Positions 22,886 to 27,402 of a DNA stretch of 64,000 bases are shown one piece after another. The stretch's first letter is position 1; each line of letters opens with the position of its first letter. This DNA comes from Actinomycetota bacterium (lineage in GTDB: Bacteria; Actinomycetota; Actinomycetes; S36-B12; UBA5976). The notes under the pieces were generated by a model. It was not told the DNA's origin and did not search any database. It saw only the letters and a program-made list of their open reading frames with translations. The position numbers and the translations under genes are program-made. The DNA is taken from assembly GCA_009918005.1 (NCBI GenBank), contig RGDC01000001.1:21899-85898 (forward strand), written 5' to 3'.

Positions 22886-25645
22886 TTAACTGCGCACTAT
22901 TTCACGCATTTCAAATGTTTCGATGATGTCGCCGACCTTGATGTCATTAAATGATCCAAGACCAATACCGCACTCGAAACCTTCACGTACTTCGGTTGCG
23001 TCATCTTTGAATCGTCGTAATGTGTCGATCGAAAGATCAGCCTGGACAACCGCTCCGTCACGGACCAATCTGGCCTTTGCTTTGCGCTTGATTTCACCAT
23101 TGAGAACCATGCAACCTGCAATGTTTCCAAACTTGCTTGAGCGGAATACGTCGCGAACTTCAGCTGAACCAAGTTCTGCCTCTTCGTACTCAGCCTTACG
23201 CATTCCCTTTAGAGCAGATTCGATGTCATCGATTACGCCGTAGATTACGTTGTAGTAACGGATCTCAACATTTTCCCGATCCGCCAAGTCGCGTGACTTA
23301 CCTTCCGGTCGCACGTTGAATCCGATGATCATGGCATCAGAAGCTGCAGCTAACGAAACGTCGTTCTCGGTGATAGCACCAACGCCGCGGTGGATAACGC
23401 GCAAAATAACGTTCTCATCATCAACGTCAATGTTTAGCAAAGCATCTTCAAGCGCTTCAACCGAACCAGAAACGTCACCCTTAATGATGATCTTGAGTTC
23501 AACAACTTCACCCTTCTCGAGTGCCTTGAGCACATCTTCTAGAGTGTGTCGTCCACGTCGCGCTGCCAATTCTGCATTGCGCTCTCGAGCGCCACGAGAT
23601 TGAGCAATCTGACGGGCAATTCGATCTTCAGCAACAACTAAGAAGCTGTCACCTGCGCTTGGCACAGAGGTAAGTCCAAGAACTTGGACAGCCCGAGCCG
23701 GCCCAGCTTCCTTAACTGGTTCCCCGTTTTCATCCATCATTGCGCGGACGCGACCGAATGCGTCGCCAACAACAATTGAATCTCCGGGACGAAGGGTTCC
23801 GCGTTGCACCAAAACAGTGGCAACAGGCCCACGACCCCGGTCAAGATTGGCTTCGATTGCCACACCCTGAGCGTCTTGAATTGGGTTAGCGCGAAGATCT
23901 AGTCCGGCATCTGCAGTTAACAAAATCGAATCAATAAGCTCAATGATGTTTAAGTTGTTCTTTGCGGATACGTCAACGAATATTGTGTCGCCACCATATT
24001 CTTCTGGGACTAATCCGTATTCCGTTAGCTGTCCACGAACCTTAGTAGAGTCAGCACCTTCTTTATCAATTTTGTTTACTGCAACAACGATTGGAACATT
24101 GGCTGCTTGTGCGTGATTCAAAGCTTCAATTGTCTGTGGCTTAACACCGTCATCAGCTGCAACTACCAAAACTGCAATGTCAGTCACCTGCGCACCACGG
24201 GCACGCATGGCGGTAAATGCCTCGTGACCCGGAGTATCAATAAATGTAATTGCGCGTTCGACGCCCTCATGAACATGGTGGATCTGATAAGCACCAATGT
24301 GCTGGGTTATTCCGCCGGCTTCCCGTTCGATGACATTTGTTTGACGAATCGCATCAAGCAATCGAGTCTTACCATGATCAACGTGACCCATAACGGTTAC
24401 AACCGGTGGACGAATTACTAAGTCTTCGGCGTCGCCTTCATCACCAAATTCAAGATCGTAGGACTCTAGAAGTTCGCGATCTTCATCTTCAGGCGAAATG
24501 ATTTGAATTTCGTAATTCAATTCCGCCCCAAGAAGTTGCAAGGTTTCTTCGTTAACAGACTGAGTGGCCGTAACCATCTCGCCCATCTTGAAAAGGATCT
24601 GAACGAGAGAGGCTGGCTCAGCATTAATTTTGTCTGCAAAGTCGCTTAACGACGATCCACGAGCAAGGCGAATTGCATCGCCACGGCCCATAGCTACAGA
24701 TGAACCACCTGTAACGGGAGCCATCATGTTGTCGAACTCTTGACGCTTTGCACGCTTTGACTTACGACCCTTTGAAGGTCGGCCGCCCGATTTACCAAAC
24801 GCACCTGCGGTGTTTCCGCGGCCACCCGTTGAATTCGGGCGACCACCTGGTCTGCCGCCTGGCGCTCCACCCGGAGCTCCACCCGGTGCACCTGCACCTG
24901 CGAAGCCACCACCAGCACCACCTGGACGAGGTCCGCCGAAGCCACCTGGACGATCTCCACCTGGACGAGGTCCGCCGAAGCCACCTGGACGATCTCCACC
25001 TGGACGACCTGCGCCACCAGGTCCACCTGGACGAGGTCCGCCAAAACCACCTGGGCGATCTCCACCTGGGCGATCTCCACCTGGACGTCCTGGACCACCT
25101 GGTCGAGCACCAGCTGGACGAGGTGCACCGGTTACTCCGCCACCTGGACGTGGTCCAGCGCTACCAGATGAGAATGGATTGTTGCCGGCGCGCGGTGGTC
25201 GCGGTGCCGAAGTAAATGGATTGTTTCCTGGGCGCGGTCCACCTGGACGTGGGCCTGGCATTGCGCCAGCAGTTGGACTTACTGGTGCAGCGGGCGCAGT
25301 CGGTGTAGCAGATGCACCTTCAGTTGATGGTGCTGCAGTAGTAACAGATGTTGACTCCACAACGGGTTCTGCAATTTGAGTTGATGCCGGAGCAGTTGGC
25401 TCATCTGAACCTGAGTCAACAGGCGCTGCAACCTTTTTTGCTGGCGCTTTTTTCGCTGGCGCAGGTGCTTTTGCTGCAGCTTCTTTAAGTTCAGGAAACT
25501 TGTCGTGTAGACGACGAATAACAGGAGCTTCGACAGTCGACGATGCCGACTTGACGTACTCACCAACTTCTTCAAGTTTTGAAATGATGTCTTTGCTTTC
25601 GACGCCTAGCGCCTTTGCAAGCTCATACACTCGGACCTTGGACAC
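22886..25645 (-). CDS. infB: Translation initiation factor IF-2
   Basis: G-domain motifs '[14 protein letters not shown]', 'DTPGHEAF', 'NKIDK', plus a long Gly/Pro/Arg-rich N-terminal region. GTG start at 25645, with GGAG 4 nt upstream. Confidence 0.97.
24918..24995. repeat. Perfect 39-nt tandem duplication (2 copies, flanked by degenerate copies) inside the infB low-complexity region
   Basis: 24918..24956 and 24957..24995 are both 'ccacctggacgaggtccgccgaagccacctggacgatct'. On the coding strand each encodes [13 protein letters not shown]. Diverged copies continue to about 25090. Confidence 0.9.
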
Positions 25646-25703
25646 GATTCTCCAGTCTGGTCCGAGGTCTAATTAATAGATCCGAACCGTCTCTTGTTTT
25701 TGC

Positions 25704-25805
25704 GCGCTCATTTCTGAGCACTCTGCTTCTTGGTGCCCATTAGATGAGCACCTTGCCTGTTGGCGTTCATAACTAGAACGCAAGCCTGGCGTTGAACATA
25801 AACAC
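25704..25805 (-). other. Array of four evenly spaced hairpins in the nusA-infB spacer (candidate cis-acting RNA element; function unknown)
   Basis: Read on the minus (mRNA) strand:
- H1, 25805..25789: GUGUU-UAUGUUC-AACGC.
- H2, 25781..25763: GCGUUC-UAGUUAU-GAACGC.
- H3, 25751..25733: GUGCUCAU-CUA-AUGGGCAC.
- H4, 25721..25704: GUGCUCA-GAAA-UGAGCGC.
Period is about 26-30 nt, with purine-rich linkers (CAACAGGCAAG / CAAGAAGCAGAG / GCAAAAACAAGAG). Confidence 0.4.
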
Positions 25806-25909
25806 TCCCGTTTTCAGCGGTAGTTAACGGATACTTGTCTTGAGTCTAGCCGAAATTGCGCAAGCCCAGTATTCACAGGGTTTTTGAAAGTTTCTAGGCA
25901 GATTTTGAG

Positions 25910-26884
25910 CTAAACGTCGGCTGCCATATCTGACTTAATGTCGATTTTTGCCCCAGTCAATCGGGCTGCCAATCTCGCGTTTTGGCCCTCGCGGCCAATA
26001 GCAAGACTCAACTGAAAATCTGGAACTACCACTCGGACAATTCGGTTTTCTTCATCGATCAAAGTCGATGAGATAACTTTCGCAGGTGAAAGTGCATGCT
26101 TAACATACAAAGCTAAGTCGTCGCTGAAATCAACGATATCAATTTTTTCGCCACCAAGTTCGCTCATAACGGCACGCACTCGCCCACCTAAAGGACCGAT
26201 GCAGGCACCTTTTGGATTAACACTTGCAGCTTTTGTTGATACCGCAATCTTGGTCCGGTGTCCGGCTTCGCGGGCAAGCCCTTCAATCACGACTGTGCCA
26301 TCTGCAATTTCTGGAACTTCGAATTTGAATAATTCTTCTACTAACTTGGGGTGGGATCGAGAAAGCGTGATGACCGGTCCCTTGGGTCCCATCTTTACTG
26401 CAACGACGTAACACCTAATTCGAGTTCCGTGTGAGTAATCCTCGCCTGGGACGCTTTCTTCTGGCGGTAGTACTCCCTCGACTTTTCCTAGGTTCACGAA
26501 AATCAACTGACGATCGCTTCCCTGCTGAATTACACCCGAGACAATGTCGCCTTCTTTTGCCTGAAATTCGGCAACGGTTGCGTCATCATCGGCCGCTTTA
26601 AGTCTTTGCGTAATAACGCCACGTGCCAACGAGGCAGCCACTCGTCCAAAGCCTTCGGGGGTAGCTTCGAATTCCCCGATCTTTTCACCTTCGTCATTTA
26701 GTTCGTCAGCGATTACCAATACATGGCCAGTTGCACGATCAAGTTCTACGCGGGCGCTCTCGTGTGCACCTGGAGCATGCAAGTAGGCGACTAGTAGAGC
26801 TTGCTCGATAGCGTCAACAACATAATCCAAGGAGAGTCCGCGTTCTCGCGTCAAACCTTTTAAAGCTGAAACATCAATGTCCAT
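25910..26884 (-). CDS. nusA: Transcription termination/antitermination factor NusA
   Basis: S1 and two KH modules ('GACIGPLGGRVRAVMSELGGEKIDIV', 'SLAIGREGQNARLAARLTGAKIDI'). rimP-nusA-infB order. Confidence 0.95.
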   Translation of the reverse strand: MDIDVSALKGLTRERGLSLDYVVDAIEQALLVAYLHAPGAHESARVELDRATGHVLVIADELNDEGEKIGEFEATPEGFGRVAASLARGVITQRLKAADDDATVAEFQAKEGDIVSGVIQQGSDRQLIFVNLGKVEGVLPPEESVPGEDYSHGTRIRCYVVAVKMGPKGPVITLSRSHPKLVEELFKFEVPEIADGTVVIEGLAREAGHRTKIAVSTKAASVNPKGACIGPLGGRVRAVMSELGGEKIDIVDFSDDLALYVKHALSPAKVISSTLIDEENRIVRVVVPDFQLSLAIGREGQNARLAARLTGAKIDIKSDMAADV

Positions 26885-26895
26885 GGTGTGCTCTC

Positions 26896-27402
26896 TTAAT
26901 CTGACTCAAGATCATGATCGTCAGCTAAATCTGCGGCTTCAGTATCTTCCTTGGGCATCTTCTTGAATTCAATTTCGATGTTTGCACGTGAGATTTCACC
27001 TATGTTCAAAATTCTCGGTTTGCCCTTTATGTCGAGGGTCACATTCGGATCGGTAAATTTAATAATCCGCCCCACTGCATTTACGGCATCGCCAGCTACA
27101 TTCACCAGTCGGCCAACATTTCGTCTCCAGTGAGCTGGCTTTGTCAGCGGCTTCGTGACGCCACGTGTTCCAACTTCAAGTACATAAGGTTCATCCCCCA
27201 TGGCGTCAGAGGTATCTAGGAAATCCGAGATTGCCCGAGACACTGCAGCGACTTCGTCAAGGTTTACCCCCGCATCACCGTCAATTGTGACATCAAGAAT
27301 TTTTTGACCACCGGATCTAGTGATCTCAATGTCATCTAGATCTAAATCAAAGGAACCCACAACAGGCTCCAGTAATAACGAAAGGTCAGAAACTGGAATC
27401 AT
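26896..27402 (-). CDS. rimP: Ribosome maturation factor RimP
   Basis: 168-aa acidic protein immediately upstream of nusA. RimP-like 'LEVGTRGVTKPL' region. Confidence 0.85.
   Translation of the reverse strand: MIPVSDLSLLLEPVVGSFDLDLDDIEITRSGGQKILDVTIDGDAGVNLDEVAAVSRAISDFLDTSDAMGDEPYVLEVGTRGVTKPLTKPAHWRRNVGRLVNVAGDAVNAVGRIIKFTDPNVTLDIKGKPRILNIGEISRANIEIEFKKMPKEDTEAADLADDHDLESD

Follow-up and report, generated by a model that had tools for sequence, protein, structure and literature searches.

A ylxR-less nusA-infB spacer is best explained as a conserved infB leader with chained mini-ORFs and a two-partner hairpin

What occupies the interval between nusA and infB, the gene of translation initiation factor 2 (IF2), when ylxR is missing from it? 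The question is raised by a stretch of 64,000 nucleotides (nt) from an Actinomycetota bacterium (GTDB lineage Actinomycetes; S36-B12; UBA5976; assembly GCA_009918005.1, contig RGDC01000001.1, positions 21,899 to 85,898), hereafter called the window, in which the nusA-infB spacer (25646-25909, read on the minus strand) measures 264 nt. An earlier reading made from the letters alone (the sequence-only reading) had called this spacer the largest non-coding gap of the window, and this was correct: it is the longest run without any open reading frame (ORF) of at least 80 amino acids (aa), the runner-up being 133 nt, all three sense frames contain stop codons and the longest ATG-initiated peptide has 20 aa. 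The same reading had described four periodic hairpins, taken to be an RNA structure acting in the nusA-infB transcript, for example as a control element for infB, and had left room for a decayed ylxR. The best explanation of our results is that the spacer consists of two parts, a remnant of the nusA-ylxR intergenic region (25909-25822) and an infB leader (about 25821-25646), and that the leader is not a dead ylxR but a conserved element: a leader common to the class, which this lineage has elaborated with additional hairpins and with mini-ORFs of greater length. The elements referred to below are the following, from the nusA side to infB.

25822-25909, minus strand: remnant of the nusA-ylxR intergenic region (MAFFT alignment of 20 genus spacers; no YlxR signal)
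25805-25820, minus strand: hairpin H0 (CCG..CGG), overlapping the Shine-Dalgarno sequence GGGAG of mini-ORF 1
25773-25799, minus strand: mini-ORF 1, MFNARLAF and stop, 8 codons, in all genus leaders printed
25763-25781, minus strand: hairpin H2 (GCGUUC/GAACGC), with the mini-ORF 1 stop codon and the mini-ORF 2 start AUG in or at its loop (folding and genus alignment)
25708-25770, minus strand: mini-ORF 2, MNANRQGAHLMGTKKQSAQK and stop, 20 codons
25732-25752, minus strand: hairpin H3, a 30-nt in-frame insertion within mini-ORF 2, specific to the sub-lineage
25704-25721, minus strand: hairpin H4 (GUGCUCA-GAAA-UGAGCGC), holding the ATGA junction of mini-ORFs 2 and 3
25673-25711, minus strand: mini-ORF 3, MSAQKQETVRIY and stop, 12 codons, reading through S1 and stopping in the loop of H5
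25659-25688, minus strand: hairpin H5, formed by S1 and S2
25682-25688, minus strand: S1, 5' arm of H5, GGUUCGG
25659-25667, minus strand: S2, 3' arm of H5, CCUCGGACC, pairing with S1 or S3
25649-25653, minus strand: infB Shine-Dalgarno sequence GGAGA (AGGAGA kept in the class alignment)
25643-25645, minus strand: infB GTG start codon
25630-25637, minus strand: S3, GGUCCGAG, infB codons 3-6 (K-V-R-V), complementary to S2

The nusA-infB locus was recovered from 33 of the 41 available genomes of the genus. An intact ylxR was found in 11 of these 33, with spacers of 464-495 nt, and ylxR was absent in the remaining 22, with spacers of 237, 264-268, 339-341 and 361-381 nt. Given that the ylxR-less sisters span 237 to 381 nt, the ylxR-like size of the present gap is a coincidence. 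In a MAFFT alignment of 20 genus spacers, including those of 8 ylxR-carrying genomes, positions 25646 to about 25821 aligned 3' of the ylxR stop codon, that is, to the ylxR-infB intergenic region of the 8 genomes, and the hairpin region was conserved in all 33 loci. The gene order nusA-ylxR-infB was found in the 11 genus genomes and in the sampled other families of the order. In this sub-lineage ylxR has been deleted upstream of the hairpin region, between about 25842 and about 25826.

A decayed ylxR was examined with two profiles. The DUF448/YlxR profile PF04296 gave 0 matches at E<=10 in the spacer and in the whole genome (84% complete), and whole-genome searches of 12 of the 22 ylxR-less genomes, one of them 98% complete in 8 contigs, yielded none above the cut-off. 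A second profile, made from YlxR proteins of the family itself, was run on the six-frame translations of the spacers; it recovered intact genes at E values of 1e-28 to 1e-37, identified ylxR in two sister-genus genomes, and gave E values of 1.3 or worse for all 22 ylxR-less spacers (the best being about 1.3 at 3 bits), no better than antisense frames. The idea that the hairpins are decayed ylxR was rejected on the homology of their region to sequence 3' of the ylxR stop and on the missing YlxR signal in every frame, and the string 'RQGAHL', once offered as a YlxR fragment, falls within mini-ORF 2.

Loss of the gene with retention of the leader is not confined to this genus. Four closed genomes of 1.4-1.5 megabases (Mb) from another family had no PF04296 match above the cut-off (0/4) and kept a mini-ORF leader before infB. 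These four are G165, G135, G150 and G180 (loci L094, L105, L135 and L096), and G059 (L080), of a sister genus, likewise had no PF04296 match above the cut-off and kept the leader. ylxR has been lost repeatedly in small-genome actinobacteria that retain the leader. Within the genus, the leader and upstream remnant of the ylxR-less genome G056 (L051) resemble those of the ylxR-carrying G010 and G002 (L015 and L016) and not those of the G000 group, and this resemblance suggests at least two independent ylxR deletions in the genus.

The leader itself is organized around short reading frames. The sequence GGGAG stands 5 nt 5' of the ATG of mini-ORF 1, 2 nt separate the TAG of mini-ORF 1 from the start codon of mini-ORF 2, and mini-ORFs 2 and 3 meet in an ATGA, where the TGA of the former overlaps the ATG of the latter. 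In this genus both junctions lie in or at hairpin loops (H2 and H4), and the periodic hairpins of the sequence-only reading are the loops that hold the mini-ORF junctions. Among the genus genomes mini-ORF 2 has 9, 10, 20, 29 or 30 codons and is always in frame, despite indels of 3, 30 and 60 nt; the leaders of sister genomes contain further hairpin modules of 30 nt, an indel of 3 nt and insertions of 24 or 30 nt in mini-ORF 1, with the chain intact in each case. The mini-ORFs are probably translated in this organism.

The chain was then followed across the class, using a rule by which ATG ORFs of at most 35 codons follow one another head to tail, offset by -4, -1 or 0 to +6 nt, and lie at most 200 nt from infB. 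Chains of at least three before infB were found in 42 of 45 family genomes (0.62 in dinucleotide shuffles). Of the 107 class genomes drawn from about 40 further families, 97 had such a chain (about 0.5 in shuffles). No chain was seen by eye in 21 genomes from other classes of the phylum, to which the chain counter was not applied and in which ylxR abuts infB. The typical class form is GGAAGCGGGTCGAGA..GCG-ATGAGCGCTCG-ATGAGCACSCAGCG-ATGAGYAC....TAR, which encodes MSAR, MSTQR and MST...., and a triple-ATGA pattern searched in 5 large genomes matched 6 places, 5 of them at infB. Successive ATGA motifs were spaced so that the frame was kept (2 mod 3) in 244 of 272 cases, at spacings of 8, 11, 14, 17, 29 and 59 nt, and in 75 of 94 distinct combinations of family and spacing. 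As in coupled ORFs, with their near or overlapping stop and start codons and conserved frame, the ATGA overlap was present at 261 of 309 junctions. The last stop stands at the same place as TAA (72), TAG (49) or TGA (25), with more than one kind in 17 of 38 families, and the ylxR stop overlaps a mini-ORF ATG, forming the first ATGA, in 34 of 98 ylxR-carrying class genomes.

An experimental sign comes from a relative. Supplementary File 1A of a study of Mycobacterium tuberculosis (Smith et al. 2022, PMC9094748) gives 'ATGAGCACACCGTGA MSTP' with its stop codon, at 3147962-3147948 on the minus strand, among RNAs whose mapped 5' end is the AUG. By the coordinates in that file, MSTP directly follows ylxR, has an ATGA overlap with the ylxR stop and lies about 75 nt 5' of the infB start (3147873). 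As far as this file goes, the RNA end at the AUG is an indirect hint of initiation at a mini-ORF.

The second component of the leader is a hairpin with two possible partners. S2 is followed by AGACUGGAGA as a Shine-Dalgarno sequence and then by the GUG start, and when the window sequence was folded together with the first infB codons, S2 paired with S3 and an inner helix took up part of the infB Shine-Dalgarno sequence. Both helices were examined on 138 distinct class sequences, aligned without filtering. S1:S2 was paired in 86.6% of cells (22-65% with the partner slid), with 69 cells changed on both sides, across 7 of 7 pairs, and S2:S3 was paired in 92.3% of cells (5-56% slid), with 49 double-sided changes; in both cases 0 of 500 shuffles reached the observed value, figures that are descriptive and not probabilities given that the shuffles ignore phylogeny. 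Both helices covary, and part of the covariation involves a synonymous site: the base 5' of CGGACC and the third base of the infB Arg codon 5 were CG in 78 sequences, UA in 14, GC in 12, UG in 8, AU in 3, GU in 1 and unpaired in 22. The Val codon in S3 was GTC in 106 and GTT in 9 of 115 sequences, GTG and GTA being found in 0, and at the Val two codons past it the same 115 sequences had GTC 56, GTG 23, GTA 21 and GTT 15. Codon choice in the first six infB codons therefore appears to be shaped by RNA pairing. A GTG start for infB was seen in nearly all genomes examined.

The predicted mean energy was -16.5 kcal/mol for S2:S3 and -14.2 kcal/mol for S1:S2, and S2:S3 was the stronger in 101 of 138 sequences. 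In 100 of 132 sequences the last mini-ORF stops 0-6 nt short of S1, and in the family of the window it continues through S1 and terminates within the H5 loop, 5 nt before S2. The layout is that of an attenuation leader in two respects: two mutually exclusive helices share S2, one of them over the infB initiation region, and a ribosome at the end of the leader ORF would cover one arm.

The hairpins over the mini-ORFs were examined at the level of the genus. Sense-strand energies were lower than antisense energies for H2 (-7.4 versus -6.8 kcal/mol), H3 (-11.9 versus -8.0 kcal/mol) and H4 (-9.5 versus -6.2 kcal/mol), so that these three are genuine hairpins with a preference for the mRNA strand, as had been proposed, and the reported U-G pair, one each in H1, H3 and H4, and the AUG at the loop/3'-arm junction of every hairpin were also found. 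H1 (GUGUU/AACGC) did not hold up: its energy was -1.1 kcal/mol, 69% of its cells were paired in relatives, 57 of 500 shuffles equalled it and slid controls reached 53%. The hairpins are regularly placed, the distances between their starts being 24, 30 and 30 nt. Among 29 distinct genus sequences H4 and H5 were paired in 99.7% of cells, versus 22-39% with the partner slid, and H0 and H2 in 95.8% versus 15-46%, five alignment rows in the latter comparison sitting on a paralogous hairpin. The claim that the stems differ while pairing is preserved stands for H2, H3 and H4, through one-sided G-U changes and some compensatory changes, and fails for H1. Compensatory changes in H3 occur in the sister genomes G045, G049 and G001, and they alter residues (GGUGCUCAU/AUGGGCACC versus GAUGCUCA/UGAGCAUC). 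Folding of the spacer as a whole was not significantly above shuffles (sense z = -1.85, with 10 of 200 shuffles as good; antisense z = -1.41). Elements that the earlier reading had passed over are H0 with its GGGAG, H5 (25688-25659) and the reading-frame logic joining the AUGs.

We favour, as somewhat more probable than not, the reading that the leader is a ribosome-operated switch on infB translation initiation, and we do not commit to its sign. Ribosomes would enter at the GGGAG of mini-ORF 1 and read the leader as a relay of three mini-ORFs, the last of which ends at or in the S1:S2 hairpin, and S2 could alternatively pair with S3. The position of the ribosome on the last mini-ORF would select the helix and would therefore set how open the infB start is, which is the logic of translational attenuation. 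In most of the class, with the stop 0-6 nt before S1, a terminating ribosome would cover S1, free S2 for S3 and mask infB, and without a ribosome S2 could stay bound to S1, with the infB start accessible. In the family of the window a ribosome running through S1 and stopping 5 nt before S2 would rather keep S2 off S3 and unmask infB. We infer that the two helices alternate and that their alternation tunes IF2 synthesis. With regard to the original claim of an RNA structure controlling infB, an mRNA-strand element that is conserved in relatives, unique in its genome and placed to control infB translation was supported in outline, and what had been missed is the relay of mini-ORFs together with the two-partner hairpin.

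A more specific version is that the cascade senses initiation capacity and that IF2 controls its own synthesis by serial reinitiation; we consider this rather unlikely. Each ATGA junction would need a fresh IF2-dependent initiation or reinitiation, the fraction of ribosomes reaching the last stop would rise steeply, roughly as the third power of IF2 activity, and those ribosomes would choose between S2:S1, with the infB start open, and S2:S3, with the start masked. IF2-stimulated drop-off of short peptidyl-tRNAs, reportedly described by Karimi et al. in 1998, could be an alternative sensing step. We rank it below sensing by reinitiation, because with the geometry typical of the class it would give positive feedback. 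According to a review, IF1 and IF2 enhance leaderless translation (PMC9031893).

Several observations weigh against the proposed switch. The chain in the window taken alone is modestly unusual, 17 of 2000 shuffles reaching three, and a lenient rule yields 404 places with chains of at least three on both strands of the 1.5-Mb genome; because of these 404 places the chain of a single genome is weak evidence, and the weight rests on conservation. Ten of the 107 class genomes fall below three, including four mycobacterial-type leaders with a gap that breaks the chain rule. The peptides are not conserved: no conserved peptide motif was found in the mini-ORFs of the class sequences, and by codon-position entropy codon 2 alone is wobble-patterned (AGC 157, AGT 61). 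That frame, start and stop are kept while the peptide changes speaks for a role of ribosome passage and not of a product. RNAalifold on 46 class leaders predicts H5 only and nothing over the cascade, and for this reason we regard H2-H4 as features of the family level. Cells are unpaired in 13% for S1:S2 and 8% for S2:S3, and the unpaired probabilities of the infB Shine-Dalgarno sequence, the start codon and the mini-ORF AUG are unremarkable at about 0.5. S3 is under coding constraint and S1 is similar to it, so that some of the complementarity may have been inherited and not selected. The geometry differs between the family and the rest of the class, and because of this difference one sign of regulation cannot fit all. 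Finally, the contigs from RNA libraries that cover the leader belong to relatives and cannot show starts, ends, strand, level or translation.

An alternative is plain translational coupling without any switching, in which the mini-ORFs hand ribosomes from ylxR or from the GGGAG site to infB, or have ribosomes shield the long leader from Rho and ribonucleases; H5 would stabilize or space the RNA, and the complementarity would have no regulatory role. We hold coupling of this kind to be a minority possibility. ATGA is the classic coupling junction and predominates in the chains, the ylxR stop overlaps a mini-ORF ATG in part of the ylxR-carrying class genomes, and short leader genes are enriched near actinobacterial starts and have been read as reinitiation sites in one study (PMC4833913). 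However, the last stop and the infB start are about 35-40 nt apart and have a hairpin between them, which is far for direct reinitiation, infB has a strong Shine-Dalgarno sequence of its own, and the covariation of S2 with a synonymous infB site is not explained by coupling alone. Less probable still is a purely structural RNA for processing, stability or as a protein-binding array, whose AUGs and stops are incidental and whose leader is never translated. The pairing kept in H2, H3 and H4 and the lack of conservation in the peptides speak for it, but it leaves unexplained that the ATGA spacing keeps the frame, that three stop codons interchange at one place, that the first AUG is preceded by a Shine-Dalgarno sequence and that indels come in multiples of three. 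Outside the family, moreover, the cascade hairpins are not conserved but the ORF chain is. No Rfam family matched either: Rfam 15 covariance models gave 4 noise matches only in window positions 25300-26300 (E 5.8-6.7, cut-off E<=10) and 0 matches at the gathering score in the loci of 10 relatives. The protein-binding array or non-coding RNA of the sequence-only reading, with AUGs as decoration of the loops, was abandoned given that the AUGs start a frame-conserved chain of mini-ORFs.

A ylxR pseudogene, with the hairpins and 'RQGAHL' as coding remnants, can draw on the gene order nusA-ylxR-infB in part of the genus and in the sampled families of the order and on a gap similar in size to ylxR. 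It is refuted for 25646-25821 by the homology of that region to sequence past the ylxR stop, both profiles were negative, and we consider it very improbable for the spacer. The likeness of the hairpin units and the 30-nt hairpin modules inserted in some sister genomes might suggest a generic dispersed intergenic repeat, such as hairpins resembling repetitive extragenic palindromes or miniature inverted-repeat transposable elements, and we give this hardly any credence. The spacer is unique in its own 1.52-Mb assembly (84% complete), where blastn-short returned the spacer itself and chance matches of 13-17 nt with E of 0.3 or more, and a regular expression for the hairpins found three local copies and five unrelated places.

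The switch remains the preferred reading of the leader, and the surrounding locus was examined for other signals. The minus-strand order in the window is rimP, nusA, infB and rbfA according to Pfam, and the neighbouring features are as follows.

26896-27402, minus strand: rimP (Pfam)
25910-26884, minus strand: nusA, 324 aa, the upstream gene (Pfam NusA_N, S1 and KH_5)
25843-25851, minus strand: GGCTAGACT, local form of the motif (T/A)TTGGGCTAGACT, a putative promoter element (regular expression)
22886-25645, minus strand: infB, GTG start (Pfam)

No intrinsic terminator (GC-rich hairpin with U tract) was found in 25500-26100 (0 sites), and a consensus scan of the same interval, which does not model actinobacterial promoters, gave one sigma-70-like site, inside the 3' end of nusA. 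A 12-nt motif, (T/A)TTGGGCTAGACT, stands 35-60 nt past the nusA stop in genus loci (for example L039, L032 and L052). A GGGCTAGACT-like regular expression matched 24 of the 33 genus spacers, with and without ylxR alike, and the near-variants GGGCTAGAGT and GGACTAAACT were seen by eye in 4 further genus spacers. The motif fits TGnGnTAnnnT, which we take to be the extended -10 promoter consensus of actinobacteria, and it is possibly an internal promoter for a ylxR-infB transcript. Similar strings, CGCTAGACT and CGATAGACT, occur about 160 nt 5' of infB in another ylxR-less family (L094, L096 and L105). A block, GGAAGCRGGTCGAGA, stands 5-10 nt 5' of the first mini-ORF ATG in many families (L085, L095 and L148), often within the 3' end of ylxR, and could be a Shine-Dalgarno-like or a promoter-related signal. 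A table of chromatin immunoprecipitation sequencing for WhiB7 in Mycobacterium abscessus lists a peak 'upstream of MAB_3131c infB' (PMC10727445), which hints that the ylxR-infB interval also holds a stress-responsive promoter in mycobacteria.

Among the 23 public runs listed, 17 are RNA libraries of freshwater and comparable origin, and most of the libraries that contain the stretch bear a freshwater or lake label. The contigs assembled from the four RNA libraries that were compared come mostly from relatives (in X1, 10 of 11 pieces were 90-95% alike). Two contigs, one in X3 and one in X4, span the infB start and the leader to about 25835-25838 and continue with the upstream sequence of a relative; the uncovered interval 25844-26081 carries no interpretable meaning.

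How bacteria set the level of IF2 is poorly understood, and autoregulation of IF3 is textbook knowledge; nothing comparable is known to us for IF2. An infB leader conserved across a whole class offers a concrete, mutable target for this question in easily handled actinomycetes, with a hairpin that mimics the first infB codons and ribosome-read mini-ORFs abutting it. It also bears on annotation. The 'empty' ylxR-sized gap of streamlined freshwater actinobacteria should be annotated as a regulatory leader with a deletion scar and not as a pseudogene. Loss of ylxR with retention of the leader is seen in 22 of the 33 genus genomes and, in another family, in 4 of 4 closed genomes of 1.4-1.5 Mb.

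No paper describing an infB mini-ORF cascade or switch was found in a literature search whose coverage left out much of the subscription journals, and infB had 0 occurrences in the accessible text of the D'Halluin preprint on translated upstream ORFs. The layout is common to most actinomycetes examined and apparently was never described, and the type of mechanism, control by upstream ORFs and attenuation, is already known. In Korolev et al. 2016 (PMC4833913), reinitiation at leader genes is described for Actinobacteria generally, with one leader gene per structural gene and a distance peak at 10-11 bp. The ATGA overlap of stop and start and the closeness of short leader genes to the structural gene are shared with the infB leader, whereas in the latter several mini-ORFs follow in series, the last ending about 35-40 nt short of the gene beside the proposed switch hairpin, and the available text had 0 matches for IF2 or infB. 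The MSTP small ORF (PMC9094748), with its ATGA overlap with the ylxR stop, is the opening mini-ORF in the mycobacterial form of the leader. In the material available from that study it is one of hundreds of candidate leaderless small ORFs and passes uncommented, infB, Rv2839c and Rv2840c are absent from the main text, and no conserved cascade or infB control is drawn from it.

Other known systems place the leader more precisely. It resembles the translational-attenuation leaders of the erm and cat resistance genes (ermC type) in having an upstream short ORF, mutually exclusive helices of which one lies over the ribosome-binding region, and a fold that would be selected by ribosome position. 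It differs in that three chained mini-ORFs take the place of one, without a conserved stalling peptide or known inducer, in that codons 3-6 would be masked (with part of the Shine-Dalgarno sequence in the genus), and in that a core translation factor is concerned and the layout is class-wide. Another known element of the nusA-infB operon is the rimP leader of NusA autoregulation, an Rfam family that acts as a transcription attenuator upstream of rimP. Like the infB leader as proposed, it is a cis element tuning expression of that operon, but the present one lies directly before infB, in an interval with no terminator-like site. The yeast GCN4 cascade of upstream ORFs and the autoregulation of infC (IF3) through its AUU start share with the proposed IF2 sensor the principle that initiation capacity, or a translation factor, is sensed by its own initiation or reinitiation on a leader; there is no homology, the machinery is different, and sensing of IF2 by the infB leader is hypothetical. 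If that sensor were real, bacteria would have a parallel to the reinitiation logic of GCN4, and IF2 its first known case of autoregulation, conserved in the actinomycete class and kept even where genome streamlining removed ylxR.

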